From Vairimorpha necatrix (lineage: Eukaryota): a stretch of DNA of 20,000 nucleotides. The position numbers and the translations under genes are program-made. Positions 1 through 20,000 of the stretch are shown here, piece after piece. The stretch is taken from the NCBI GenBank assembly GCA_036630325.1, contig CP142727.1, positions 1,471,499 through 1,491,498 of the forward strand, read 5' to 3'. Numbering within the stretch: the first letter of the stretch is position 1; each line of letters opens with the position of its first letter. Under the pieces are notes generated by a model. That model was not told the origin of the DNA, searched no databases, and saw only the letters and a list, made by a program, of their open reading frames with translations.

Positions 1-2970
1 AATTATATAATCTTAACAATGAAAAATTTATATTTTATGATACTATATTTTTTGAATATTCCAGAGATGAAAATATTTTTCAAATATGGGGTGAATGATC
101 ATTTAAATATAACATTTCTAAAAAATAATTAAATTGATATATTTTTGAATTACACCCCTAATAGATATACTTTTTGTTTTCATATAATTAGACTATCTAA
201 ATCATAGACAATTCAAATAGAGAAGAGAACGATATATAAATAGAAAAGAAAACAAATAAAAAGATTACATATCTAACAATAGTTATAAAACTGTACACTA
301 AATCAAATTTATTGTTCACATTAGAAATTATACCATGGATTAAATAATTGCAGACATAAATTTTGACTGAACCTTTCTGGGATTGATTTGGTTGCAAATT
401 AAATTTTTATAAAAAATGCACATATTTTATTTATGTTCTATAAAAAAAAGTAAAAGGACATTATATTCACATTATAAGTTACTTTAAAAATAATTAGACA
501 AAAAATAAAGTATGCATGAAACAAATTAACTCGTTTCATCCTTATTTCTAATTTCTAAAACCAAATTCCGTACACAATTTTAATTTGGCAGAAAAACAAA
601 TCCCTAGATGAAAGATTATCGAAATGTCATTTCTTACAATAAAAATTTTGATGTTATGTTCAAGCCATTTATAATATTAAAAACGAAAATATATATATGC
701 GAGAAATTAATATTTACAAAATTAAACAAACAATTTCTTTAAAAAACAGTTCAATATTTATTTTAGATGAATCAATAGCTTTCATTCCTCGTATAAAGGA
801 CAAGGATCATATATATCATTATTAAAATAGAAATACTGTCATTATTATTTGTTTGTTCCGTAAATCCGAACCAAATCCTCTATCGTATAACAAAACATAA
901 GGTTACACATTTGATAATCTTTATGAATTTTTAGATTGTAATTTAGTACTGTTTCCTTAATAGAGATGTATTGTTTTTTTTTTAAAATATCAGTTGTTGA
1001 TAAAATTTAGACAAGAAATTAATATGAAAATTACCTTATAAAACAAAGATGAAATACGCTTAATACGTACAATTCATGTCGAATTAATATAATCAACTTG
1101 TTATAAATTAAGAATATTTTGTCAAGCAACATGATTCAATGTATCTGTGTAAAATCAAAAATAAGATAAATTCTTACTCAAAAAATAAATTATATAAAAT
1201 ATAATAATTTGAAATATTTATATTTTTCAATTATTATTTTTAAATGACAAGAAACGTACCTATATTAAAAAGATAATACAAGCGTTAAAATGATGTGAAT
1301 CTAATACACTCTTTAAAAATCAAGACAACTTGCATTTTAGACATAAAACTATGTATGTAGAAATTTTTAAGTTAATAAATATGAATATAAAACTTGCATC
1401 AGCAATATATATAGAGTGGATAAAAAAAATATTAAGTTTAAAACAAAATAACAAACCGTTTTTAATACAATTTTATAATCAATAGTGTAATATAAGAAAA
1501 ATTTACATATAGAGTATAAAATAACTGAAAACTAATGTTCTATATATAAATTAGAGTTGATTATTGTATAAAAAATAATAAGTAATATTGTATAAAGTAG
1601 CTTTTAATAACTATTTTTAAATGTTATATTTTTGTGGTAGACACTGAATATTTAGAACATTTTGAAAATACTTATGAGATATAAAATGAATATCCAGTCC
1701 TTTATCTTTAAGATTAACGTCACTAGAAAAAAACATTGTAACCAAGCCTTTTCCATAATGACTATTAAGATTTACTTTTTTTGAAAATTTTTTTGATCCT
1801 TAAACGACGAAGTGTATTTTGGAAATCATTAAAAAATTTTATGTAAAAATGAGCTTTAAAAAATGAAAAAATAGAACTTTACTATTAATGAACAACTTCA
1901 CTTACAACTAGAAATAAAATTGATGGATACATCGACCGTGTTTTCAAAAAGAGGCCAGGTTTAAAAAAAAACATTACTGATGCAGTGTTTAATGAATTTT
2001 GTTAATATCGAATTAACGTCTAAAGAATTTATCTAGGATCATCTTTTTTTCTTTTATACGATTATATATCCCCATTTTTCAAAATTCGAATAACTGGTAG
2101 TCAAAGAAGTCCGTAGAAAGCAGGATCAAATTTTAGTAATGTTAAATGTCGAGTAAAAGATTTATGTAATGATAAGTGACATTTGTGTAAGTTAATTATG
2201 TACATTATTTTGCAATTTAGAATTTAATTAAAGCTTTGTTTCTCATTAGCAGTGAATCTTGACGATGTAATATAAAGATAGACAAAAACATATGTTCTGA
2301 AACGAAAAAATTACACAATATGTACTTTCTGTAGTTTTTTTTGAGAATTCAAATTGGTATTTATGAATAAACTTCCTACACTAAACGTATGAGAACAAAT
2401 TCATTGTTAACAAAATTCTATGTAATGGTTCTCTCTTATCTTACATGGAAAAAAAATAAAAATTAGGAAGAGTGTAATTTTATGAGAAAAGAAGAGAATG
2501 TCTAGAAATATTATTTTATGAAGGATCATTAACATTTACGAAAATTTTAAAACAATCGAAAAGCGAAATTTATCAGATAAGAAATTTAGCATATAATAAA
2601 ATTTGAAAGTTTGGGCATACGGTAATTGATTGCAATTACATATCTGTCATATAAAGTATATATTGACACTGATTCAGACAAAGTTTAAAATTAGCTTTGA
2701 AAGTCTTTATTAGTTAACATTCAACTTTAGATAATATATTAGTAATAAATAGATAGCAAATTATCATATAAACTGTTTACAGTTATAATTAAGATGAATC
2801 AGTAGAACAAAATATTTCAAATGTAAAGTTATAAATGATTAGAACATTATATAAATACCAAATTAAAGACTGTCATTCTATTATAATGAATAATTTTAAT
2901 GAGTGTAATAAATAAAAATATCATAAAAACGAATATATGATAAAAATTTTTATAAATAAATAAGAATGAT

Positions 2971-2976
<6 letters not shown>

Positions 2977-3006
<30 letters not shown>
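2977..3006. repeat. (AT)15 microsatellite
   Basis: Perfect AT dinucleotide run, ending ~30 bp before the Merlin element. Confidence 0.95.
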
Positions 3007-3009
<3 letters not shown>

Positions 3010-3037
3010 TAAAAATCTAGATTTAGTATAAAAAAAT

Positions 3038-3091
3038 GGTACATGACCGTTTGTCACCCGCTTTGGGAAAATGAACCCGCATTGAAAAATT
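3038..3091 (+). repeat. Merlin TIR (downstream of transposase)
   Basis: GGTACATGACCGTTTGTCACCCGCTTTGGGAAAATGAACCCGCATTGAAAAATT is the reverse complement of 4130-4183 at 52/54 positions. ACCCGC occurs twice inside it. Confidence 0.95.
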
Positions 3092-3132
3092 CAAAAAAAG
3101 GGAAAAATAAAAAAAATTATAAAAAAAGAGAC

Positions 3133-4106
3133 TTAACGATTTATTTTGAATAATGAAAGAAGTCGATTAATTCTTTGGTTTTTTGCTATTTGATAAGACC
3201 ATAGAAACTGTAAAAGATACTCATAGTGCTCGTCCTGGTTTATTCCATGTATAGACCGAATATCTCTCTTCGAAAGAGACCAAAATCCTTCAATTTGTTG
3301 AGTAAGTGTCTCGGGATCGTTAGGATTTACAAAATTGATAGAGTGATTGACAGTCCTATGCTCCATCCCTGTGATTTGTCTAAATGCAGCACCATATGCT
3401 CTCCATTGATCAGTGATCACAATATAACCAGGCAATACATTATCTTGTATTAACTTAAGAAGCGTAGCAATATTTCTACTAGCTACAGGGACGAGAAAGG
3501 CCTTTCTAGAACCTCTTTCAACTCCTCCTACATACCACTGACCTGTGGTATGATTGCCACGATTATATTTGGCACGAAAGAATAGACTCTCGTCGATCTC
3601 CACTACTTTAGGAATGCCTAACTCATCACGACCTCCTAACCTCTGGCTATTATTGGTCACTTCCTCGATTATGCGATCTCTGCAGAGCATACCATATGTA
3701 CTTACGGTTTTTCTGTCTAGCTCAAGATCATTTGCTATATCGAGAAAGGAAACTCTTTTGATATACTTATATATCATTCTTATAATTTTATAAAAACTTA
3801 ATTTGGTATTTTCAAAAATAGAGTCTTTTCTGACAGATTTAGAAGTAGTACAAGGTTTCGTGAATTCCAAACATATTTGTCTAATAATCTTATTCTTCTA
3901 ATCAATTTCATTGGCCTTTCAGAGCTGCATACAGTACAAAAAAAGTTGTTTTGTATTAATGAACTGCGTGCCAGAAACATACACGCTGTCTCAGCATCAT
4001 AAAATGTTTCCAAAATAAAATTTTCATTTATTTCCATGTTTAAAAACATTTCATCACTTAAAAGCTCATCTTCTATAACAAAATTTGTTTTTGTCAATCT
4101 TGCCAT
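3133..4106 (-). pseudogene. Merlin/ISXO2-like DDE transposase split by a 1-nt frameshift at ~3862 (ORFs 3798-4106 and 3133-3870)
   Basis: N-terminal part has CTVC...KYVW. C-terminal part has KPC..SVRKDSIF, an HTH-like IANDLELDRKTVS, and catalytic motifs VEIDES / ITDQWRAY / VNHS.NFV / QIEGFWS. Adding one base (TGG AAT T[G]C ACG AAA CCT TGT) joins them into a 324-aa protein. Confidence 0.9.
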
Positions 4107-4123
4107 TTTTTGAAAGGGGGGGG
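4107..4123 (-). promoter_or_regulatory. C-run (CCC-like motif) just upstream of the transposase ATG
   Basis: Minus strand reads CCCCCCCCTTTCAAAAA-ATG. CCC/GGG-like motifs close to the start codon are an established signal of microsporidian genes. Confidence 0.5.
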
Positions 4124-4129
4124 TCCTTT

Positions 4130-4183
4130 AATTTTTCAATGCGGGTTCATTTTCCCAAAGCGGGTTCCAAACGGTCATGTACC
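4130..4183 (-). repeat. Merlin TIR (upstream of transposase)
   Basis: Reverse complement reads GGTACATGACCGTTTGGAACCCGCTTTGGGAAAATGAACCCGCATTGAAAAATT. Confidence 0.95.
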
Positions 4184-4568
4184 AAAAAAATATATTTAGA
4201 AAAAACATGTTGGCCATGTAAAAGAAGGTGAGTAGTAATTTGGTTGTCGGTAATGAATTTTGATTTTTTTTTATTAAGATAATTAAAACAACGGATTATA
4301 TTACAATAAATACTAAATGAAGGATAAATCATCAGATCAAGCCTTGTAGAATTCTAGTATTTTTTATCGATGTAAGGTTCATATTAATCTTGTCTATTAT
4401 ATTTAATGAACCTAATCTTTTTGTAATATTTAATTTATATATTTTGGGATCTGAAATTATCTTCATTTAAGGAAAATATTTAAAAAAAATATTTTAAATA
4501 TATTATGATTAAACAAAAATGATATATTAAAAATTTAAATAAGATAACTTATAGAGTATAATAAAAAG

Positions 4569-4584
4569 ATATATATATATATAT
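4569..4584. repeat. (AT)8 microsatellite at the 5' flank of the non-LTR fragment
   Basis: Direct reading of the sequence. Confidence 0.8.
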
Positions 4585-4707
4585 TTGAAAAAATGAGGGT
4601 AAGGACAGAGCAGGAGGAAGAAACCGAAAAAATTACAAAACAAACCTCTATAGCAAACATAGACAAAGTAGACACAGAAGAGAAAGAACAGGGGCCAGAA
4701 CACACTA

Positions 4708-5523
4708 GTGTGCCCACTCATCTTCTGTGGACAAGAGGGACAATGTCCCCATTGTGGATCTCATAGGAAGACCGTGGATCATTTAGCTACCAAGTGTGAT
4801 CGAATGTTGGGTTTTGATTATATGAAAAGACACAACGAGGTAGTTAGATGCATTCATCTCTTACTATGTATTAAATATGGGTTTAAGAAGACAAAGAAAA
4901 TACGTGGACACTCAGTACAAGAGATCATGGAAAATGATCGTGCAGAAATAAGAGTAGATACGAGAATATCCACTAATATAAAGGTAACCCATAATAAGCC
5001 TGATATTCTTGTGTTTGACAAGAAGAAGAAAGAAATTTTAATAGTTGAAGTTGGTATAACCAACCAGGATCGACTTACTATAGTTGAGAATGAAAAACTA
5101 AGAAAATATGACCTTCTTGCAAATGAACTGGGACTAATACATAAATCCCGGACAAGAATAGTTCCTTATGTAATGACATGGGATGGAGTGGTGACCAAAT
5201 ATCACAGAAAGTACATCAGGGAGCTAGAAATCCAACCCTACCTGGAAGCATATATCCAGTCTATTGTGATGAAGAAGACTCTAGAGTCCATCTCTTTGGA
5301 ACGACGACGAGGATACGATCAGGAGGATGCAGGAGAAGAAGAAGTGGCTAGAGCTGTAAGCGCACTAGCGAATATGGCGACTGTTAAAGAAGTGGTGTCG
5401 GCAAAGGGGAATGAAGCTGCTAAAGTGAAGTTGGAAAACATTAATAATTCCACAGAAACCAAAGTCTGTGAAGAGCTGAATCCCATGAGCGATACCGGGG
5501 AAAGCTGTGCTATGAATATCTAA
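4708..5523 (+). pseudogene. C-terminal part of a non-LTR retrotransposon ORF: CCHC zinc finger plus restriction-like PD-(D/E)xK endonuclease (R2/R4-Dong-like); RT domain absent
   Basis: CPHC-x7-HLATKC zinc finger, RHN motif, KPDI...VEVGI endonuclease motif and KLRKY..LA.EL. The frame is open for 271 codons but has no RT motifs upstream. Confidence 0.88.
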
Positions 5524-5650
5524 ACATAATTGAAAATTAACTCAATAAATCTTTTATTTTATATTTGAATAAAAAAATAATCTAATAGTAATATTGTTGT
5601 GTTATATAATATAAAAAATAGGTTAAACTATCAAATACTCTAAGAATTTA

Positions 5651-5866
5651 ATAGCGTACATCAAGATGATTAACAGAAGACAAACTAAAGCATTCCAATA
5701 GACTACAAAAGAGGTGTGAAGGTTCCGATTTAAAAAGGACTAAGAGCCGTGAAGCTGCCTACAAACAGGAGATGCTAATGCGGAACCTATTAAGAATATA
5801 CTAGAATATAAAACACCATTAGCATATCCCGTATTAATTCATTTTTATTAGAATAATAATAATAAT
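5651..5866 (+). mobile_element. Degenerate extreme 3' end of a second, related RLE non-LTR retrotransposon, with a structured 3' region and (AAT)5 tail
   Basis: Translation IAYIKMI /frameshift/ QKTN*SIPIDYKRG aligns by eye with EAYIQSIVMKKTLESISLERRRG of the neighbouring ORF. (AAT)5 lies at 5852-5866. Confidence 0.55.
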
Positions 5867-5970
5867 TATGTTTTATATATTTATAAAGATTATTTATATA
5901 TATTATAACAATGGTATTTATTATGTTATTTTCTGGAATAAACTATATTTTTCCATATTAAATATGAATT

Positions 5971-6256
5971 TGTGGTATTATTTACCACATTATTATATTT
6001 TCCTCCAAATGAATTTTCTAGAATTTATTTTTATATAAATATTTTCTTTTTATTTTTACCCCCACCAAAATATGTCAAGAAGAACAGAGGAGTCTAGAAA
6101 TCAGCAGTATCAATCACTGCATCCCCAGAAAAGGGAAGATAAAGCCCAAGGAGGCAGATTTAATAATACAACTTTAATTATAATAAAACTTTAATACCCG
6201 TCAGAAGCATTATAGAATGCTATCTGAGGAACGGCCAACTCCCGGGTAATACCTCA
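5971..6256 (+). repeat. 5' LTR of the gag-only element
   Basis: TG...CA ends with a 9/10 terminal inverted repeat. Contains TATAAAT (6034-6040), a C-run (6059-6063) and an ATG (6072). Confidence 0.92.
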
Positions 6257-6371
6257 ATGAGCTCATTAGTATTAGAAAAAAGTAATAATACTGAGAAATA
6301 AAATGATGATGAAGCATATACCACATTTGATAAAACCATAGAAGGAACTACAATAGTGTTTAAAGAAAAAA

Positions 6372-7025
6372 TTGAAAAATGTAAAACGTGACTGCACCAT
6401 AAATCATCTCGAGCTGTTTGAAGAGCTAGGAACGGCCAATAAATGGACAAATGAGCAGATGGGACTCATCTACCATTCTTTGATTGAAGATTCTAAGGTG
6501 AAAGATAAGCTAAATAAGAAAAGCTTTAAAAAACAAAAAAAAGAACTACTAGAATTCAGATATCCAAAAAATGATGTAGCTTTATTATTAACAGAGATGG
6601 AAACTGTAAAACAGGTAAATTATAGAAGTATAGCAGATTACTTCGAGAAAATAAAGTCGATGATTAAAATATACGGACTATCTATAAACCTATCGAAAAA
6701 GGAATCTGATGTTAGATTGAAACAGATTTTTGAAAAAGGATTAGGCAGATCAACTGCCATTGAAGTTTTAAAATCAGGAATGAAAAACAAGGTAATGGAC
6801 GAGCTATTAAAATATTCACAGGATCTGGAAGAAATGATTATTTTACAGGTGAAACTGGAAGGGAGACTTTATCTCAATTTATATCTAAGAAAGAGAATTA
6901 TGAAAGACCTGAAGAAACAGGAAGATACTTTAAAAGTGATAAGTGGTGCTCTATACATCGAGCAAGATCACATGATACACGAGATTGTCGTCTACAAAAA
7001 CCAAAAGCCAACGATAGAGAAATAA
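6372..7025 (+). pseudogene. Gag (capsid plus nucleocapsid) remnant, frameshifted
   Basis: HLELFEELGTANKWTNEQ resembles the retrotransposon gag FE...N.W motif, and KQIFEKGL resembles the gag F..GL motif. Another frame at 6944-6988 reads WCSIHRARSHDTRDC, a C-x2-H-x4-H-x4-C zinc knuckle variant. Confidence 0.8.
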
Positions 7026-7657
7026 AAAAAGAAGGAAAATCGTTAATGATAAAAAAAATTCCTAACGATGAATTGGATAAAAAAATAAAAAAACCGACTG
7101 CCTATTAATTCAGAAACAAAAAGAAAATAAAATCATCAATAAACAGAAATGTATAAATGAAAGAATAAATAATATAGATAATTGTATTAAAAGGAATTTG
7201 AATAAAAAATAGACAATCTTCTAGCTAAAGTCTTAACTAATATAGTTGACTTTGTGAAAAGGACAGGGAATACGATACCATCAGATGATATATATTCAAA
7301 AATATTAAAATAAATAACAAAGGAAGAAGCAAGCCTCCTGATAAAATTAAAGATAACCATCAACAGGTAAAAGATTTGGCAACATCTAAATATGATAGTT
7401 ATCAGAATAAAAAAAAAATCTTGGAACTTTCAGAAAACATTGCCTCAAAAATAAAATGCAGCAGATGCAATTTAGCATATGTAGATATGGAGTAAAGGGC
7501 GAATCTGAGAAGCTCAAATGTGATAAGTTAAACTCATACCTTGATTCGAGGTTTAGAATATCCAACCCAGCTATTTCTTAGAAACGGCGAAAAGAACTAT
7601 TTGATGATTTCGGAGGAATCCGTATTCTAATTTGCTGATTTTTTGCAGGAGGTAGTA

Positions 7658-7943
7658 TGTGGTATTATTTGCCACATTATTATATTTTCCCTCCAAATGA
7701 ATTTTTAGAATTTATTTTTCTATAAATATTTTCTTTTTATTTTTACCCCCACCAAAATATGTCAATAAGAACAGAGGAGTCTAGAAATAAGCAGTATCAA
7801 TCAATGCATCCTTAGAAGAGGAAAGATAAAGCCCAAGGAGGCAGATTTAATAATACAACTTGCATTATAATAAAACTTTAATACCCGGGAGAAGCATTAT
7901 AGAATGCTATCTGAGGAATGGCCAACTCCCGGGTAATACCTAA
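7658..7943 (+). repeat. 3' LTR of the gag-only element
   Basis: Copy of 5971-6256. The terminal CA reads AA, followed directly by the GAATT TSD. Confidence 0.92.
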
Positions 7944-8002
7944 GAATTAAACATAAAAACAAGAAATAAATATATGACAAATTAATAATTTTTTTTTCTT
8001 TA

Positions 8003-8380
8003 GGGAGTATCTACACATCTTATATCCGGCATGAAGCCTGATCCGAAGTTGAAGTGATGAGTCTAAATTTACATATTGATTTATATTATTTGTTTGTTTT
8101 GCTGCTCATCGGAATTGTAGGTCAGGGGTAAATTCCGTTTAAATAGTCAATCAGATTAACTGTCAAACTCTTTGAGATGTAATCAAACAAACATGAAACC
8201 GAAGTTCTACTGAATTAGTAGTACTTCATGTGACATGCACTTGTCTTACTTTTAGTTTGTGAATGTCAAACATGTCTAATGTTTATTTACAATACTCTTA
8301 GACGTTTGACAGTACCAATAATCATTGTATAATTATAAACAAGATTCGTCAGTGCAGGTCTGCAGCCTCACACATCTGAA
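8003..8380. other. GC-richer, hairpin-dense non-coding island (possible PIF/Harbinger-type transposon end or structured RNA)
   Basis: Several inverted repeats, three TGTCAAAC motifs (one inverted), no ORF. Begins TTA|GGGAGTATCTACAC. Confidence 0.4.
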
Positions 8381-11300
8381 GAAAATATTAATATTGTTAT
8401 TTTGAAAATTATTTCTTGCACTATTTAGTACATTTTTTTAGAGGTTGCCAACGTATGTATCTGTATAATTAATATTTTAAGAAATTTAGATTTATTTGTC
8501 TTTTCATATGAGTACGTAAGTATATAATTTGCTGTATATAAAATAATTATGAAACGCATTATGTGCAGAATCGACATAAAAATAAAAAATTGAAGTAAAG
8601 TTAAACATATTAATTCGGCTTTGGACAAATACGTTAATTAAACGCAATATTTACTTCTTTTTGCAAGGTAAAAACATATTTTTCAAAACAAGTAAATTAG
8701 ATTCTTTCAAAAAGAAATTAAAACACAATCATTGAGTGATTTAATTACAAGAAATGTCTGACACTATATAACAATCATTTAAGACATATAATTTAGTCTA
8801 ACAATATATTTGTTGAAAGAATTAGGACATATTTATATACAAGAAATAAGATTATAAATCTATTTAAAATAATTTATGTATATGCATTATAGCATTTAAA
8901 TAAATGTTAAAAAACGAAAACTTGATAAACTAAACACAAAGGTTCATGAAAGTGTGTATTAACGATTACATCATAAGAACATTTGTCAGAGTTTACATTC
9001 AAATATTCACCAACCACGTTTCAACACACCAATAATACAACAAAAAACAAAAAATTCAATATGTTTATCCATGCAAAATAATTAACCTATAACTTACGTG
9101 GCTAAAAAATAATTACAATAAAAATAGAATTTTAATAAGAAGTTTGTATATGAAGGGCAAAGAATATTTATGAAGCAAGTACACAATCATAAAGTTATTA
9201 ATAGCGAAATATTTTTAGCCTTCTTACTTAAAAGTAGCAAAGTTTTATCTATGAAAAACAGAAAATAAAGAAAAAATAAGAACGAGCATATTGGTTGAAA
9301 GAAAAAATATCTTTTAAAATTTAAACGAACTCTACAATCTATCTAAATTTACAACATAGGCAATAACAAGATAATTTAAATTTGTTTTTTCCTTTTTTCA
9401 TTTGGTATAAGTACAACAAAAGAATGGAATTACTTACGATCAAAAATAGCACTGTTTTAGAAGGGATACAAATAATAAAAATTTATTATAACTAGATAGT
9501 AGAGGGATTATAAAGATAAACATATGATTCATACATATTGCTTTGCAAGATAAATACATAAGAATTCAAACTAAAGATATACGATCAAGATATTAATTGA
9601 AATGTAATTTTCTTTTATATTAAAATCTACGCCAAGATAAACAAAAATAAATCCCAATATTGCATATAGTATTATTTAAGTACAATTAAAACAAATAGAT
9701 TAGTTTTTTAATTATCTGAAACATATCAGACGATTTTGTAAATGAAAATTATACTGAAAAATCAACTATATAATATTTATATTTGATAAATATGTACACG
9801 TTATTAAGTATAATAATTACTAATGGTAAAAAACGAAAACAAATATTATATAAAAATTTTAAACGAATTTTGATTAACCTCGTATATTACATTTTTTGAT
9901 TTATAGAATTCTAAAGAAGTTTCAGTTATGAAACATTGTAGACTTTTGGAATCGAAGTTGGTAAAAAACAAATGTCACAAATATTAATTTGTTGTTTACA
10001 ATCATATTGACCACACAAAATTTGAAATTATGACCAAAAAATTCTAAAAAGTAAAATCATCAATACTAGTATTATAATTATAAAAATATATTATTTTATT
10101 ATTAATTTCAAATAAATAAGAACAAATCAATTCAAAATTCTCTCGGTTAAATATTTGATAATCGCTCTTTTGTTATATATAATACTTTATAAATCCGTTA
10201 AGTATAATATTTTTATATAATAATTAGATAAAAATTTAGGTATGAAGATCGAAATATTATAAAAAGAGTTTTTTGACGAAAGAAAAAAAAATTTAAAATT
10301 CAATCAACAATTATCGTAAAATTATATAATCATTAGAAAATCATTTATTTAATTATAATTAGAAGAATTGATGAAAATTATTTAAATTAACAATATAAAA
10401 TAAAACCTATTCATTGTAAAATCGTTCAGCAACAGTAAAAAGAATTTTACTTAGAAACGACATTTATGTAATTGATTTTAAAAATCCTAGGGAACCCCTA
10501 CTTAAATATATTTTCCATATTATAATATAATAAGAAATAATAAGTTTATTTTCAATTATGAATAATTAAATAAAAACAATAGCTCATACAATTTAATATA
10601 AGGTTGACGTAAAATGGGTTCGAGATTTTGAAAAAGGCGTCGCATATCTCAAAAAAATAAAACAAAAATAATGAGGGGAGTAGAATAGAAATGCATATAA
10701 ATCCAATACATTTAATACAAAAAAAAAATTAATTATGAAATGCTATATTTATTAAAAAATCTTTTATGCCATAGTTACACGCTAACGGAATATAATTTTC
10801 AATATTTATATATTTAAGCAGAAAATAATTTAAAGTAAGATAAAGAGTAATAACATAATATAAAATGATTAACACTTGCTTAATTTAAATTAAAAAACTT
10901 ATAAAAACACGTTAATTTAGAATAAGTATTTCTTAACTATAATACTATATAATATTTCACCTGGACGTTTTCAAGATTATTTACAAAAAAATAAAAAAAT
11001 TCGAAAAGTTTGAATTGCATATATTAAATATTAACAATATGATAATACTTCGGGAAAACAAATAAGAATCTTAGAAAAAACACCTAAATAATATTTATAT
11101 ATCGTTAGTTTGAGAAATTTACAAGTATTCTTAAGAAATTAAATTTTTAGAATATATAAGAATTCATTTACACATATTTAAATAAAAACAAAAAATTTAT
11201 ATTATTTAGCATAAAAATGAAATATTATTAGTTAAAAGAAAAACTTAAAAATTCCTCTTATAAAATAAAAAATTTTGTTCTTTGTCTTATAATTATCAGA

Positions 11301-14246
11301 TATTTAAATTTTTTGAATCAAAAATTTTATATAACTGTTATAGTCAATATTTTTGAAGAAAAATTGAAATTTAATTTTGATATTATATATTGTATAGTTC
11401 AATAAAATGCGTTAGATTAATTCTAAGTATGAAAAGGTCAAGAAAAGTTATACTTCAATATAAATTTTTAATACACAAAGATTGACCTACAAGTAAAATA
11501 AAATAATGCCAATAAAAATCTTTGAAAAAACTAATATATTTCGAAATGCAATTTCAATAATGATATTTGAGGTTAATATTACAAAAATAATTAAAAAAAA
11601 ATATATTTAAAGTAGTAGGATAACTTTTTTTAAAAAAAAACGTATTGGACTAAAACTCGTTTTGAAAATTAATGTTAATATCTAGAATAGTTATAAAAAA
11701 TATTCAAACTAAACGTTAAAAAAAATTCTAGATAAGTGAAAAGAAGAAAATTTTTATACAATTAAATTTTTACGACTTTTGAAGCGCGAAGTCTCAACCA
11801 CTATAACGAAAATAATATTTTTTGATCATTAAATATAATTTTATATTTTCAAATTTCGCTCATAATAATACACATACGACTGATTAGTATAAGTAATAGT
11901 TTTAGAACATATAACGACTTTATCTTTTTTTAAAAATAATGTATCAATCGAAAATTTAAAATGCAATATATTACACCTAGATATTAAACATGATGATATA
12001 TACAACCTACACGAGAAACATATGATTCAATAACGAAAAATTTATAAAAATACTAAAAATAATCTATTAAAAATTTTTATATATTTGTATTTCAAAAGAA
12101 ACCATATCACGGAGGGTTTTAGAAAATTGTAGATTAAAAATATTAAATTACAATCATTATTTCATAAAGTTTTAAAAATGATTTAAATTATTCTTATGGT
12201 AAAACATTAAATACTATTTATCGCAAGGAAGCATTAAAAAGTTCTTTATATCTAAAAACTCATTTTTTTATGCTTAACTTAAGTTTTTAAAATTATTATA
12301 AAAATGTAGCTTATATAAACCAAATAATATCAAGAAAATTCATAAATAAAAATTTAAAGTCTCAAAGAAACATAAAGACATACGACGAAAATAAAATATA
12401 AACATATATAGAGGAACACAACAAACGACATTTCATTCTGTTATCATTTATTACAACAGTATTTTGAAATTTTTGGTTATAGACTGTAAAAAAATTATAA
12501 AATATCAAAACAAAAAATTATTTCAATGAAAATAATGATAAATAATTAAGAAATAAATCTAATAATGGTCAGAAAACATATTAAATACATTTCAAATGAT
12601 AAGATAATCAACATTTATACAAATTGTAAATTTATACACAAAAGTAGGCTGGAAATAAATTTCGTATTTCTTCATTTGAATTTTTCTAGTAAACATCATA
12701 TATTCCACGTATTTATTATTAATACTATAATTATGATAAAATTAAAACAAAACAAATACAGAATTGGTAAATTTATTAACAAATATTTTACACTAACCGA
12801 AGAATTAAAAAAATATAAATCAATAAGAGCTTGAAGGGTTAATAAAAAGTATAAACAAACCCCAATGCAACTAATTAATAGATATTTATATAAATTTAAG
12901 AAAAATTTAATGTAAGAACATATAAATTAAAAAACAAATCTTATCTTTAAAAATGACAGAAAATATTTTAATGCATTACCCCGATTACATTATAAATATA
13001 GATGCAGTAGACGAATTCTAATAATTATAAAATTTAATTTAATTTAAATATTAATTGATTAAAAAAATATAATAATATATTGATAAATTAAATTCCAAAT
13101 ATGAAAACAAAAAAATCTTTATGAATTTTTTTGGAATAAACATTTTGATTTTTAAAGAATGAAATCAATCTAATGATTTAATAAAAAAATTAAAATTTTT
13201 TAATAATACATGAATACTTTTATTCATAAAAAATAACATTTTAACATAACACATTATGTAAAACATTTTTATAGATAATAATAGGTTACTTTTAAACTAT
13301 TCGCAATTTTTTACGCAAAAATTTAACAATTTTAACTGGTTATAAAATATATCAAACTAGTTCTCTTCATAATTGAAATTATATGAAGATCAAGCATGAA
13401 GTAAATCTTACGGTTATAAAAGAAAATTTATAAGTACAAACAAAACATATCCTGGGCATTATGATCACATATCAAATATATTTTTTATAGGATGTATTTT
13501 TCAATTATCCAATAACTTCACTCCCTCTTTTTTTTAAAATATTATATTTTCTACCATAAAAAAATTAATCCCAAAGAGAACATAAATAATAAACACAATA
13601 ACATTTGTAATATTAAAAGACTTTTTGGACAGTTCAAATACATAGATAAATAGAATTGTACATTAGAAGAAGCCTCATCCTATGCAGCAGCCAAGTAGAT
13701 ATAAATATTCATAAAAAATTCAAAAGAACAAATTTTTGCGAAAATATTTTATTTTATAAAAATTAATTAAATCATATTAATCTGATAAATCTTAAGTACT
13801 TCTATTGATCTATTTTAATATAACATAATTTTATACTGAAATATACAAATGTAATTAGTTATAAGTATTGTATTTTCAAACAAACACTGGAATCTTTCCT
13901 TAATGTTAACAAATTGTTACGTCCTTTTACTTTCTATCAATAATGATCAAATTTTTTTATTCAAAGTGATTATCATAAGCTTTCCTAAAGAGTATAAGCT
14001 TTTGTGTCTGTATATATGCGTTAATACAGCATTCGAGATTTAAGTTATTTGTATAATTCCCTAAAATATTTTTTTTTAGTATAATACGAATATTTCCAGT
14101 AAGAAATATGTTAAAACACAAAAATGACTTTTTTTTACAATGAAATATATTACAAATTAAAGAAGTAATTTCATACTTTTACAATATATTATTACATAAA
14201 TTTATTCGCAAAATTACACCAAAAATACTTTGTGTTTTAATTATAA

Positions 14247-14284
14247 TGTTAAAGTTGAACCTTTTATTAAATAAATGTATAACA
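14247..14284 (+). repeat. 5' LTR (38 bp)
   Basis: TGTTAAAGTTGAACCTTTTATTAAATAAATGTATAACA. Confidence 0.88.
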
Positions 14285-14810
14285 TGGCAAACACAAAAGA
14301 CGAAAGGGTAACAAGTGAGACCTGTGTTTAAGAGAAGATAAAATTACTAAAAGAAACTCAGAGAGTAGAAGCAATCATCAGAATGCAGAAAGAAAAAGAT
14401 GAGACAACGAAGCAGTCGATAAAACAAGTAAATTCTGAGCTTCAGGATTTTATTATTGATAAAAATTTAATCATTATGATTAATTGGAATAATATTATTG
14501 ATGAAATTGATAAATTAGTTATTGAAGAGGAAGAGAATAAGAACAAGGAAAAAATAAGGAGTAGAGAACTAGAAGATATGGTAGAGGGTATGAAGGAAAA
14601 ATTAAAAAGAAGATGAAAGGATAACTGACTAGGACTGTAGCAGTGTCAGGAAGATACTTTCAATATCAAAGACGAGAAGAAAAACATTGGTTTATATGTG
14701 GGAGAATTATACATATAGCTAGAGGTTGTATGGAGCGTAAAGGAAGACAGGAAGAGAATAATGAAAATAAAAGTGTTAAATATTTTGGCATTTGTGGAAA
14801 AGTAAAATGA
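14284..14810 (+). pseudogene. Short gag-like remnant with degenerate zinc knuckle(s)
   Basis: The ATG overlaps the LTR end, followed by a charged coiled-coil-like ORF at 14383-14616. 14688-14729 reads WFICGRIIHIARGC, a decayed Cx2Cx4Hx4C. A second GICGK follows. Confidence 0.6.
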
Positions 14811-15043
14811 AAATATTAAAAATGAAATGATTTTAAATTGAGACTACCAGTGGAGGTAAAAAGAGAGAACTCAAGAAACAGTTTTTATGTAAAAAATACA
14901 AACCAAGATAAAAGAAGAAAAAATATTAATAAATATGAAGAATTAGAAGGAAAATTTTCGAGGTATTGTGAAAAGACAGAGGGAAAAGAAAATACTTAAC
15001 AGGGATAAAATGTTCTTTTAAAACAAAACAATGAGTAAAAGTA

Positions 15044-17330
15044 GTGCAAAAGAAACAAAATATTCCTTATAAACTCCGAGAAAAGGCAGAAAAGTATATT
15101 AATTTATTAGAAAGTAGAGGTATTATCAGAAAGACAAAGAGCAAATGGAAAAGCCTAATAAAGCCCATAGAAAAACCAAATGGTAAAGTACAATTGAGAA
15201 GCAATTTGATGGCTTATAATGAACTGGAATAAAAAGATCCGTATGATTTGCCATTGATTAGAGACATATTAAAGCAACGCAAGGTTCTAAAGTATTTATG
15301 GTTATAGACCTAAAGGAAAGATTCTATCATATAGAAATTGAGAGAGCTTACAAACATAAGACAGCTTTTAAGATAAATGGTAGAGTTTACGAATGGAATG
15401 GCATGGTAAAGGGATTAAAAAATGCTCCCCATATTATGCAAAGAGTGATGAACGGAGTTTTAGATAAGTTTAGAGGCAAGAGTGTTGAGGTGTACATGGA
15501 TTTTATTATTTATGCATGAGATAGTAATATACAAGAAAATTTTTTAAAACAAGTAATTCGAAAATTTAATGAATGTGGATTAAAAGTAAACTCAAGAAAG
15601 ATACAATATAAATTAGGAGAAGAAAAACTACTTGGAGTAACAATTAACTGAGAAGACATTAAACCGAAAAAATATATAGGAGTAGACATTAGAATACAGA
15701 AAGCCTAACAACATAAAAGATCTTAGAAGAGTTGAGGAGCGGGCAGGCCGGTTAAGAGATTTTATTCATCATTATGCTTATCGGTCAGCGCTTCTTACAA
15801 GAGCACTAAAAAAAGATAGTAAATGAAAATGGTCCCAAGATATGGAAAGAGCTTTTATGGATATCAAAGAGGATTTAAAGGATGTGAAAAAATTAAAAAT
15901 AGAAGATAGATAAAAAAATATTTAGAGTAAGAACGTGTGCATGCGATAAGGGAATTGGAGTTATACTTCTGCAAGAAGACAAGGAAGATAGGTAGATTCT
16001 GATACAATGGGCATCAAAAATGCTAACACCAACAGCTAAAAAGTATACGATTAGTGAAAAAGAGATGTTGGCAGTGTTATTTGAAATAAAGAAATTCGAG
16101 TCAGATTTGGGGGAAGAAAATTTCAATAAATGACAAATCATAAAGGAATGGCCGAGATTAGAAACAAACCGTTTTTTAATAATTACATAATTAAGAGATG
16201 GATAGAATATATACAAGAGTTCGATTTTACTATTGAATATGTAAAAACAGAATTGATGATGTATGTGGATGCTCTTAGTAGACAATTTAAAAATAACGAA
16301 GTAATTGAAAAGGCGAAAGAGATAAACGCACCAAAAACAAATTAAATGGAAAGAAAAAAAGCGCATGGTTAAAAGAGAAGGCAAAAACTATTGGAAGTTC
16401 TCAACAATAGAAATTATTAAATACAACACAAAAAAATAAATGAGAACAGAAATTCGCAGAGTTCATGAGGAATTAAATCATCGTGAAGTGAAAAAGACCT
16501 TATTATAAGGAAAAACAAAGATTGTACTGACCAGCTATTTGACCAGATATCCACAACGCTAAAAAATTGTGGAATATAGTGCATTAATAACAGAAAAACG
16601 ACTGGAGGTTGCAATTTTGTAACTATATTTAAGAAATTAGAAAAAGTAGCTTTACACGTAATTGTTATCGAGGAAAACAAAAAATACCTGCTATTAGGGA
16701 TTGACTACTTAGAAGAAAAGTATAGGGCGCAAAAATGGAAAATAGAGGAAGTGATGTTAATACGAAAATTTTAGGATATTTGATAAATGAAGATGGATGC
16801 CCAGATGAATATTTCGGATAACGGTAAGAAATTTCTCAGTGAGAAGTTTGTAACTTGGTGTAAAGAAAACGGAATTATGCAATGGAAAGTAGGTTTAGAA
16901 GCTCATAAGAGCAATGGAAAATTGAACGATGTATTTGAACAATAAGGGAATCATTGATTAAATAAAAAGAAGGAAACCCAGAGTAAAAACTAGAACAAGC
17001 TAAGAACCTATTATAACATTTTACACACAGCGATAAAATGTACACCAATGGAAGCATGTAAAGAACAAGGAAAAGAAGTCTTTATTGAAAACGTTAAAAA
17101 GGGTGTGTATGCAAGTAATTTTAAACAAAGGAAAGAGATAAAATTTGAAGTAGATCAGGCTGTGAGAATCGCAAGATAAAAAACTTGGGTAAACAGATGA
17201 AATGTATGAAAGGAAGTTTTACAAGTGTTGGTAAAATGATGGGAAAGTGTGAGAATGATTTTTATATTGTAAGGACTGATAGCTGAAAATACCTTAAGAA
17301 ACGACATTATGACCTAAAAGATTATAAAAA
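15044..17330 (+). pseudogene. pol pseudogene: reverse transcriptase, RNase H and integrase, with many stops and frameshifts
   Basis: RT: GIIRKTKSKW, KPNGKVQL, VIDLKERFYHI, KHKTAF, GLKNAPHIMQR, VYMD. RNase H: GIGVILLQ, WASKMLT..KKYTISEKEMLAV, RWIEYIQEFDFTIEY, VDALSR. Integrase: VHEELNHR, LLGIDY, SDNGKKF, SNGKIER, HTAIKCTPMEA. Confidence 0.92.
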
Positions 17331-17368
17331 TGATAAATTAGAAGCTTGTAACGTAGAACTACCCGTTT

Positions 17369-17377
17369 GGAGGGGGA
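17369..17377 (+). other. Polypurine tract
   Basis: GGAGGGGGA directly abuts the TG of the 3' LTR. Confidence 0.85.
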
Positions 17378-17416
17378 TGTTAGGGTTGAACTTTCCTATT
17401 AAATAAATGTATAACA
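17378..17416 (+). repeat. 3' LTR (39 bp)
   Basis: TGTTAGGGTTGAACTTTCCTATTAAATAAATGTATAACA; contains AATAAA. Confidence 0.88.
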
Positions 17417-17578
17417 TATAATCATTAATCTGAAAAAAAAATACTTGAATTAATAGATATTTAGTTAAAATTTATCTAAAAATTTTCATTTTTTATTTAT
17501 TTTAGTTACATATTGATGTAACTGAATTTTTTTTTTAAAAAAAAGATTCAGGAAGGTTTGAGGGCTAAAAGCTGACGT

Positions 17579-20000
17579 GTTAGGTAGGTTAGGTAGGTTA
17601 GGTAGGTAGGTGGGTGGGGGGTGTGGTGGTTAGGGTAGGTAGGTGGTTAGGTAGGTAGGGTGGGGTAGGTAGGTTAGGTAGGTAGGTTAGGTAGGTGGTT
17701 AGGTAGGTAGGGTGGGGTAGGTAGGTTAGGTAGGTAGGTTAGGTAGGTAGGTTAGGTAGGTAGGTTAGGTAGGTTAGGTTAGGTAGGTTAGGTAGGTAGG
17801 TAGGTAGGTTAGGTAGGTAGGTGGTTAGGTTAGGTAGGTGGTTAGGTAGGTTAGGTAGGGTAGGTTAGGTTAGGTTAGGTTAGGTAGGTTAGGTAGGTAG
17901 GTTAGGTTAGGTTAGGTTAGGTAGGTTAGGTTAGGTTAGGTAGGGTAGGTAGGGTTAGGTAGGGTTAGGTAGGTAGGGTAGGTAGGTTAGGTAGGGTAGG
18001 TAGGTAGGTTAGGTAGGGTAGGGTAGGTAGGTTAGGTTAGGTTAGGTAGGTAGGTTAGGTAGGGTGGTAGGTAGGGTAGGGTAGGTGGGTAGGTTAGGTA
18101 GGGTTAGGTAGGGTTAGGTGGTGGTTAGGTAGGGTAGGTAGGTAGGTGGTGGTGGTTTAGGTTAGGTTAGGTAGGGTAGGTAGGTAGGGTAGGGTGGGGT
18201 AGGTAGGTAGGTAGGGTAGGTAGGTTAGGTGGTTAGGTAGGGTAGGTAGGGTAGGTAGGGTAGGTAGTAGGTTAGTAGGTTAGGTTAGGTTAGGTAGTAG
18301 GTTAGGTTAGGTAGGTAGGTTAGGTAGGTAGGTAGGTTAGGTAGGTTAGTTAGTAGGTTAGGTAGGTTTAGGTTTAGGTAGGTTAGGTTAGGTTAGGTTA
18401 GGTAGTAGGTTAGGTAGGTATGGTAGGTAGGTAGGTTAGGTAGGTTAGAGGTTAGGTTTAGGTAGGTAGGTTAGGTAGGTAGGTTAGGTAGGTTAGGTAG
18501 GTAGGTTAGGTTAGGTTAGGTTAGGTAGGTGTTTAGGTTAGGTAGGTAGTTAGGTAGGTTAGGTAGGTTAGGTTAGGTAGGTAGGTAGGTAGGGTAGGTT
18601 AGTAGGTTTAGGTTAGTAGGTTAGGTAGGTTAGGTAGGTAGGTTAGGTAGGTAGGTAGGTAGGTTAGGTAGGTAGGTTAGGTAGGTTTAGGTAGGTTAGT
18701 AGGTTAGGTTAGGTTAGGTAGGTAGGTTAGGTAGGTTAGGTAGGTAGGTTAGGTAGGTAGGTAGGTTAGGGTTTAGGTTAGGTAGGTTAGGTAGGTTAGG
18801 TAGGTGGTTAGGTTAGGTAGGTTAGGTAGGTTAGGTTAGGTTAGGTAGGTTAGGTAGGTTAGGTAGGTTAGGTAGGTTAGGTTAGGTAGGTTAGGTTAGG
18901 TAGGTTAGGTAGGTAGGTAGGTAGGTTAGGTAGGTTAGGTAGGTTAGGTTAGGTAGGTAGGTAGGTAGGTTAGGTTAGGTTAGGTAGGTTAGGTAGGTAG
19001 GTAGGTTAGGTAGGTTAGGTAGGTTAGGTTAGGTAGTAGGTTAGGTTAGGTTAGGTAGGTTAGGTAGGTTAGGTTAGGTAGGTAGGTTAGGTAGGTTAGG
19101 TAGGTTAGGTAGGTTAGGTAGGTTAGGTAGGTTAGGTAGGTAGGTAGGTAGGTTAGGTAGGTTAGGTTAGGTAGGTTAGGTAGGTAGTAGGTTAGGTTAG
19201 GTAGGTTAGGTAGGTAGGTTAGGTAGGTTAGGTAGGTAGGTAGGTTAGGTAGGTAGGTTAGGTAGGTTAGGTAGGTAGGTTAGGTAGGTAGGTTAGGTAG
19301 GTAGGTAGGTTAGGTAGGTAGGTTAGGTAGGTTAGGTAGGTTAGGTAGGTTAGGTAGGTTAGGTTAGGTTAGGTAGGTAGGTTAGGTAGGTTAGGTAGGT
19401 AGGTAGGTAGGTTAGGTTAGGTAGGTTAGGTAGGTTAGGTAGGTTAGGTAGGTTAGGTAGGTTAGGTAGGTAGGTAGGTTAGGTTAGGTAGGTTAGGTTA
19501 GGTAGGTTAGGTAGGTTAGGTAGGTTAGGTAGGTAGGTTAGGTTAGGTTAGGTAGGTTAGGTAGGTTAGGTAGGTAGGTAGGTTAGGTAGGTTAGGTTAG
19601 GTAGGTTAGGTAGGTTAGGTAGGTAGGTAGGTTAGGTAGGTAGGTTAGGTAGGTTAGGTAGGTAGGTAGGTAGGTTAGGTAGGTTAGGTTAGGTAGGTTA
19701 GGTAGGTTAGGTAGGTTAGGTAGGTTAGGTTAGGTAGGTTAGGTAGGTTAGGTTAGGTAGGTTAGGTAGGTAGGTTAGGTAGGTTAGGTAGGTTAGGTAG
19801 GTTAGGTTAGGTAGGTAGGTTAGGTAGGTTAGGTTAGGTTAGGTAGGTTAGGTAGGTAGGTTAGGTAGGTAGGTAGGTAGGTAGGTAGGTAGGTAGGTTA
19901 GGTAGGTAGGTAGGTTAGGTAGGTAGGTAGGTTAGGTAGGTAGGTAGGTAGGTAGGTAGGTTAGGTAGGTTAGGTAGGTTAGGTAGGTTAGGTAGGTTAG
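17579..20000 (+). repeat. Telomeric array, T(1-2)AGG: irregular mix of TTAGG and TAGG
   Basis: A G-rich, C-free strand runs 5'->3' to the window end. Variant units (TAGGG, TGG, TAG, TTTAGG) are concentrated proximally and the distal part is almost purely TTAGG/TAGG. Confidence 0.95.

Follow-up and report, generated by a model that had tools for sequence, protein, structure and literature searches.

The right end of contig C2 of Vairimorpha necatrix, an insect-infecting microsporidian parasite, is capped by a composite telomere in which TAGG and TTAGG units are intermixed without a fixed period, and the same mixture caps most other contig ends of the genome. The order of the two units has a first-order memory, the distal arrays of different ends are unrelated, and the genome encodes a full-length TERT reading frame. 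We consider it fairly probable that this telomere is made by telomerase, with one RNA carrying a nearly canonical template, from which the DNA end is released at T or TA before it re-anneals loosely.

Terminal arrays and shared subtelomeres

The window, i.e., the whole 20,000-nucleotide stretch analyzed here (C2:1471499-1491498), ends at position 20000 with the last base of C2. The array occupies 17580..20000 on the plus strand, with its first TTAGG at 17580 after a G at 17579 and with the G-rich strand running toward the end. Because it reaches the last base of C2, it is terminal and not interstitial, the latter being the case in which the original prediction would have failed. It comprises 547 units, 268 TAGG (S), 207 TTAGG (L), and 72 others, contains no C at all (GC skew, 1.0), and agrees with the irregular TTAGG/TAGG telomere that had been predicted. 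Among adjacent clean pairs, LS and SL are the most numerous (137 each, against 98 SS and 53 LL), which makes the alternating 9-mer the most frequent arrangement, as had also been noticed along with runs of either unit, the longest of which are 8 S and 4 L. TRF reported periods of 4, 9, and 13 with matches of only 82 to 83%, and the array is therefore aperiodic. An Rfam search of the window returned no matches.

The array is zoned with respect to variant units, a feature that the original prediction had missed. The proximal part (17580..18895, plus strand), delimited by unit counts and by base-for-base identity with the left end of C9, is rich in TAGGG, TGG, TAG, and TTTAGG units; variants make up 69 of its 297 units (48 of 171 in 17580-18329, 21 of 126 in 18330-18895). 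The distal part (18896..20000, plus strand) is almost pure, with 140 S, 107 L, and 2 variants among 249 units, and is common to no other end.

The genome comprises 15.0 Mb in 12 contigs, and 8 kb was taken from each of the 24 contig ends. The comparison of chromosome ends that had been proposed gave the same mixture at 21 of them, in arrays of 1.1 to 3.7 kb with the G-strand outward. Their 11427 units include 6470 TAGG, 4266 TTAGG, and 691 others (TAGGG, 154); TAGG thus accounts for 60% of the two main units and TTAGG for 37% of all units, which is not the composition of a uniform TTAGG pentamer array. An 18-nt mixed motif matched the genome 638 times in forward and 639 times in reverse orientation, and its reversed control matched 0 times in both. 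The remaining three ends (C3R, C8L, and C11R) stop inside the shared subtelomeric block, at window positions 9330, 2220, and 1075, respectively, and are therefore most simply regarded as incomplete.

Alignment of the ends shows that window positions 1..17579 are a subtelomeric block common to chromosome ends and composed of transposon relics and AT-rich DNA. Twenty of the 21 telomere-bearing ends, the window's own included, align over 3.4 to 6.4 kb up to the junction with 84 to 100% identity (3 to 6 kb being fetched per end; three ends match window 1-9330), and the C9R subtelomere aligns in two pieces. Next to the telomere lies an AT-rich spacer (17417..17579, plus strand), common to all 21 aligned junctions, that ends in a conserved AAAAGCT(T/G)ACGTG at most ends. 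It is preceded by a broken LTR retrotransposon (14247..17416, plus strand), bounded by terminal repeats of 38 bp (14247-14284) and 39 bp (17378-17416), both TG..CA, with TATAA on both sides. TGG follows the 5' copy, a purine tract precedes the 3' copy, and an RVT_1 match lies at 15262-15516 (E, 3.8e-16). Usual LTRs are far longer than 38 to 39 bp; from its layout we take the element to be Ty3/gypsy-like. By blastn of the ends, all telomere-bearing ends but one (20 of 21) carry it, some 160 bp away from the telomere; the exception is the C9 right end, which looks like an empty site. A 20-nt nontelomeric insert lies within the first repeats at the C9 right junction (L051:5400-5434); it has no genome match except itself at up to 2 mismatches, and on that ground we rejected the idea that it had been copied by read-through from an RNA gene of the genome.

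The shared subtelomere also carries an IS1595-family transposase ORF (window 3133-3777, minus strand; Pfam E, 8.7e-13), presumably Merlin-like, and, by eye, a LINE-like tail fragment (window 4804-5523, plus strand) with no Pfam match. Degenerate short TAGG/TTAGG remnants occur about 24 to 60 kb inside some 10 ends, in telomere-like orientation and followed by common sequence. To judge by the two copies read (L099:140-190 and L098:150-207, the latter at C2:~1462900, some 8.6 kb to the left of the window), the remnants resemble former chromosome ends that have become buried. That such mixtures are not confined to telomeres is shown by the single locus obtained when metagenomes were scanned for the mixed motif: in a 1.2-kb contig (L095:100-290), an internal, nontelomeric TAGG/TTAGG tract of about 190 nt is flanked by short inverted repeats. 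The stretch adjoining it reads by eye like a fragment of what we assume to be a family-B DNA polymerase.

Of the C2 right and C9 left ends, one has recently been copied onto the other. Their subtelomeres are identical over the 5.4 kb compared, and they have about 1.3 kb of telomere in common, including a 1134-nt identical stretch; the alignment breaks 1316 nt from the junction, at window 18896, and C9L carries an extra 77-nt tandem duplication relative to C2R. C5L and C5R have 144 nt of array in common, and C4L combines a subtelomere of 98.7% identity with an unrelated array. Among 171 pairs of distal arrays, the longest common substrings average 82.1 nt, compared with 82.9 +/- 1.1 nt in simulated independent arrays, with a maximum of 136 nt (simulated range, 108 to 156). 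In this statistical rather than biochemical sense, distal repeats are added de novo and independently at each end. Over all ends, variant units amount to 12 to 16% in the first 750 nt, 0.3% at 1.5 to 2 kb, and 2.7% beyond; variants falling outward are expected under a telomerase model, since the outer part is renewed. We infer that the inner zone is old, inherited, and occasionally copied between ends, and that the outer zone is written afresh by a stochastic enzyme; the distal part of the window (18896..20000) would accordingly be newly synthesized.

Unit order, TERT, and candidate templates

The TAGG/TTAGG transition frequencies, which had been suggested as a guide to the template, were obtained from 6045 distal transitions located beyond 1 kb from the junction. 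S followed L in 1906 of 2376 cases (0.80) and followed S in 1760 of 3669 cases (0.48), leaving a probability of L after L of 0.20 compared with an overall L frequency of 0.39. The BIC was best at order 1, higher orders added little (p, 0.02 to 0.03), and the log likelihood was -4052 for the independent model and -3722 for the first-order model (p ~1e-145). P(S|L) exceeded P(S|S) at all 20 ends long enough to test, each with p < 0.01. Left and right ends are alike (0.794/0.478 and 0.796/0.475), and transition rates vary among ends beyond sampling expectation (chi-square p, 5e-6 and 0.002). The same order statistics would arise if 48% of rounds added a lone S, 20% a lone L, and 32% the pair, and they fit the multiple alignment registers that had been envisaged. 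Algebra on the transition values gives identical unit-level statistics for L-then-S and S-then-L templates, so counts alone cannot fix the template, and its phase rests on a toy model.

In this toy model of annealing, extension, and release, 137 strings of 6 to 13 nt were enumerated from the two units and the TT-containing ones were fitted; a refit covered 21 chosen templates. The model is a rough one, allowing nothing but perfect terminal pairing, a single optional early stop, and a coarse grid, and its ranking of templates is only approximate. Every one of its best-fitting strings has T or TA at its end; templates ending in G stutter on GG or make one unit only. The TA-ending templates AGGTTAGGTA, TAGGTTAGGTA, GTAGGTTAGGTA, and TTAGGTTAGGTA, as well as AGGTAGGTTA and GGTAGGTAGGTTA, reached log likelihoods of -3733 to -3770, compared with -3722 for the first-order fit, and the plain two-copy template TAGGTTAGGT reached -3850. 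The template that the original prediction gave as an example, 5'-CCUACCUAACCU-3', fared poorly, with about 10% aberrant units and a log likelihood of -4737. An initial reading on our part, in which the order memory ruled out every pure TTAGG template, did not survive these fits. The toy model favors a template whose DNA copy would be about AGGTTAGGT(A); its best fits need a weak preference or none for longer duplexes (beta, 0 to 0.3), which is unusual.

A search of the genome for the telomerase RNA-binding domain gave one match, on C3, in a 912-aa ORF (Telomerase_RBD PF12009, E 2.5e-17; RVT_1 PF00078, E 3.5e-16) whose sequence is the same as that of a protein named Vairimorpha necatrix TERT. 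Among 8000 scored candidates there was just one other match, of 55% identity, which clusters with the V. ceranae TERT. Low-complexity repeat insertions lie inside the RNA-binding and RT regions of the V. necatrix protein (L055:775-3513), which has 912 aa compared with 775 in V. ceranae. A POT1 family search of the genome gave no match, but its controls were silent too, so that this result carries no information. With a terminal array at 21 of 24 ends and a TERT ORF present, the claim that this is a true telomere stands.

The rejection of memoryless skipping, the first-order order, and the unrelated distal arrays together point to a telomerase with several annealing registers. In the mechanism that we propose, a single telomerase RNA would carry a short TTAGG template close to the canonical one, in which the 5' boundary may have been altered, or read past, by a single base. 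The DNA copy of this template would contain AGGTTAGGT, probably followed by A, and the RNA would read about 5'-(U)ACCUAACCU-3'. The DNA end would be released at T or TA and would re-anneal loosely, at any of several T/A positions and with 1 to 2 base pairs as readily as with 4 to 5. The register would set the product of each round, i.e., TAGG in about 48%, TTAGG in about 20%, and both in about 32%. As the enzyme would never mis-register on GG, only the number of Ts would vary.

Other explanations of the mixture differ in how they account for this order. The original prediction treated a template holding both units and a TTAGG template with T skipping as distinct alternatives; the distinction does not hold, in that a two-copy TTAGG template that starts copying at TAGG already reads TAGG and then TTAGG. 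Skipping of one T on a pure TTAGG template in a memoryless way would agree with the variation of the T count only and with TTAGG being the Encephalitozoon motif, inferred to be ancestral (PMC10158259, PMC11592040), but it amounts to the independent model, whose log likelihood falls far short of the first-order fit and which fails at 20 of 20 ends. Memoryless skipping is refuted, its residual probability being minute, and it survives only in a register-dependent version within the mechanism proposed above. One RNA in which TTAGG precedes TAGG and GG forms the end (such as 5'-CCUACCUAACCU-3') would produce TTAGG-TAGG from its outer register, TAGG from its inner register, and TTAGG from abortive rounds. 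The word model {LS 0.32, S 0.48, L 0.20} reproduces the first-order statistics exactly with only 20% abortive rounds; however, explicit base pairing yields 7 to 20% G-stutter units, compared with 0.3% observed, and the 11-nt core occurs outside telomeric and subtelomeric repeats only in two transposon relics, at C9:178422 and C6:471002. We regard such a template as unlikely. More doubtful still is a pair of telomerase RNAs, encoded by paralogues or by alleles of a polyploid cell, that specify TTAGG and TAGG, respectively, and alternate on one end. Paralogous RNAs with different templates are described in Andrena bees (10.1101/2025.04.29.651168), two RNAs have been proposed for Candida tropicalis (PMC7857110), V. 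necatrix has been described as tetraploid (PMC10759460), and rates do vary somewhat among ends. A pair of processive enzymes, however, predicts runs and a distributive pair predicts independence, whereas the data alternate, L following L about half as often as its overall frequency; the arrangement would also have to persist in Nosema muscidifuracis.

Two further explanations dispense with a templated mixture. Recombination or copying between ends could maintain the array without telomerase templating the two units, and the sequence that C2R has in common with C9L (5.4 kb of subtelomere and 1134 nt of array), as well as the 144 nt common to C5L and C5R, speaks for such exchange. Sharing is nevertheless confined to proximal parts, the 171 distal pairs are as unrelated as simulated arrays, there is no surplus of long 9-mer runs, and the genome has a full-length TERT ORF, so that this reading has very little probability. 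Errors of sequencing or assembly in what is really a pure TTAGG telomere could be suspected, because T and TT form a homopolymer difference and V. necatrix has been published as TTAGG (PMC10759460, PMC12449221). At 1.5 to 2 kb from the junction, however, T-runs in the assembly have a length of 1 (1234 cases) or 2 (817 cases), never 3, and G-runs have a length of 2 in 2047 of 2051 units. This near invariance disfavors a general homopolymer error, which would not spare GG. The same aperiodic order recurs over 1134 nt at C2R and C9L, although reads may be shared between these ends; left and right ends agree in their order statistics, and the relative N. muscidifuracis has the same mixture at another ratio, 81% TAGG (PMC11592040). 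A base-calling artefact is thus unlikely, and we give next to no credence to an artefactual origin of the mixture as a whole.

Search for the telomerase RNA gene

Genome pattern searches for template-like sites, combined with the reading of about 35 loci, gave no supported telomerase RNA gene. Only motifs followed by a C in the next 12 nt or by AA in the next 14 nt qualified, a setting that could miss copies, and the loci read were those outside the GGTTAGGTAC family of about 15 copies, C6:332264, C7:739034, C7:558570, 29 rows of one search, and the sites of another. Site counts were mostly no higher than in reversed controls, and the excesses consisted of telomeric or subtelomeric copies and one dispersed repeat family. 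Most of the 35 or so loci are coding, transposon-derived, or repeated; two single-copy noncoding ones were folded and gave no folding signal. The 11-nt core of CCUACCUAACCU was found at two places outside telomeric and subtelomeric repeats, with 1.5 expected by chance. The site at C9:178422 (11-nt match, no ORF in 2.2 kb) belongs to a transposase relic with 10 dispersed copies at 67 to 75% and a fold z of -0.88, which we take from the aligned copies to be of Merlin/IS1595 type; the site at C6:471002 is a retrotransposon purine tract. In a set of 7 loci, L059 and L064 lie inside long ORFs, L060, L062, and L063 are LINE relics by eye, and L058 is AT-rich intergenic DNA with a poor model fit. A set of 20 loci proved mostly coding, transposon-derived, or featureless and AT-rich, and Rfam gave two chance matches in these 20 sources at E <= 1. 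L067 (C5:926471) is single-copy but unstructured (fold z, +0.22), and the TAGGTTAGGTTATTC family, with about 12 copies of which 2 were read, is an AT-rich dispersed repeat. A dispersed AT-rich repeat family, with 97% identity between the 2 copies read, has TAGGTTAGGTTA in its interior (L096:137-151 and some 11 further sites). A distance of 2.5 kb separates two THUMP-domain paralogues (L085:1621-2205 and 4723-5295), which adjoin a long ORF that is presumably the RNA polymerase II subunit RPB2.

One locus, L061, was kept as a weak lead only. It is a 130-nt single-copy noncoding segment between repeat fragments (C1:968328-968456) that holds 5'-ACCUAACCUAC-3' at C1:968349-968359 (11-nt match), flanked by a possible 6-bp boundary helix and then by a 7- to 8-bp hairpin. 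Fold z values of -0.70 and +0.26 give no folding signal, and the apparent 10-bp closing helix uses a repeat end common to other loci. As a template, it predicts TGG after TTAGG; this fails, TGG following S 68 times and L 19 times. Two contig sets compared at this region have near-identical DNA, which yields nothing usable on the conservation of the candidate. It would be a long shot for L061 to be the core of the first microsporidian telomerase RNA, very small and working with 1- to 2-bp annealing, and for the mixed telomere to be a wider Vairimorpha trait that motif-calling tools have collapsed to TTAGG.

Relation to known telomeres

A composite TAGG/TTAGG telomere was published for N. muscidifuracis in 2024 (PMC11592040), so that T(1-2)AGG, which the original prediction did not recognize as a standard telomere motif, had been reported before. 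In the portions available to us, that report states that the composite telomere had not been described from any other microsporidian and does not settle how it is maintained; those portions contain neither order statistics nor a mechanism, and "telomerase" is absent as a word from the main text. The two species are alike in that the same two units are intermixed, TAGGG is the commonest minor unit, arrays span 1 to 4 kb, and long conserved subtelomeres are common to the ends. They differ in ratio, TAGG making up 81% in N. muscidifuracis (11951 versus 2792 from the sums of Table S4) and 60% in V. necatrix. With intermixed units, a TAGG majority, TAGGG as a minor unit, and a shared conserved subtelomere, V. 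necatrix is the second species with a known composite telomere. Its listed motif is hereby corrected: the passages seen of two papers give it as the pentamer TTAGG/TAACC only (PMC10759460, PMC12449221), which is one of the two units, whereas TAGG is the majority unit in this genome. No description of the mixture in V. necatrix was found in the literature searched, most subscription journals lying outside the search, and that literature described no microsporidian telomerase RNA. The few TAGG units at butterfly scaffold tips (PMC11068028) have no bearing on the question.

The composite TAGG/TTAGG telomere is therefore not peculiar to one species, and other microsporidian "TTAGG" calls deserve to be re-checked. 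About 11,400 units from 21 ends would form a clean read-out of telomerase register and release. They narrow the putative template to a few strings around ACCUAACCU, and the values 0.80/0.48 provide a quantitative prediction for any candidate RNA. This offers a usable handle on the telomerase RNA gap in microsporidia.

Homogeneous telomeres are reported for several other microsporidia. Encephalitozoon is reported to have pure TTAGG (PMC10158259), as the original prediction had stated, and Microsporidia sp. MB and Glugoides are reported to have TTAG (PMC13174016). All resemble V. necatrix in having a reduced T-A-G motif and a TERT; in them, however, shortening removes G, whereas V. necatrix drops T and both forms coexist. 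A closer functional parallel lies outside the group. In S. cerevisiae and S. pombe, heterogeneity is known to arise when the register varies or the template boundary is read through (PMC7857110), in keeping with the variable template use that had been invoked for yeasts, and in Bombus incomplete repeats arise by alternative annealing (PMC9841428). The V. necatrix telomere would appear to work like yeast-type register choice: one template used in several registers and copied in part gives a stochastic array in yeasts and Bombus as well (PMC7857110, PMC9841428). In those systems the G-run varies or short repeats are the minority, whereas in V. necatrix GG is invariant and the two units make up more than 99% of the cleanest zone.
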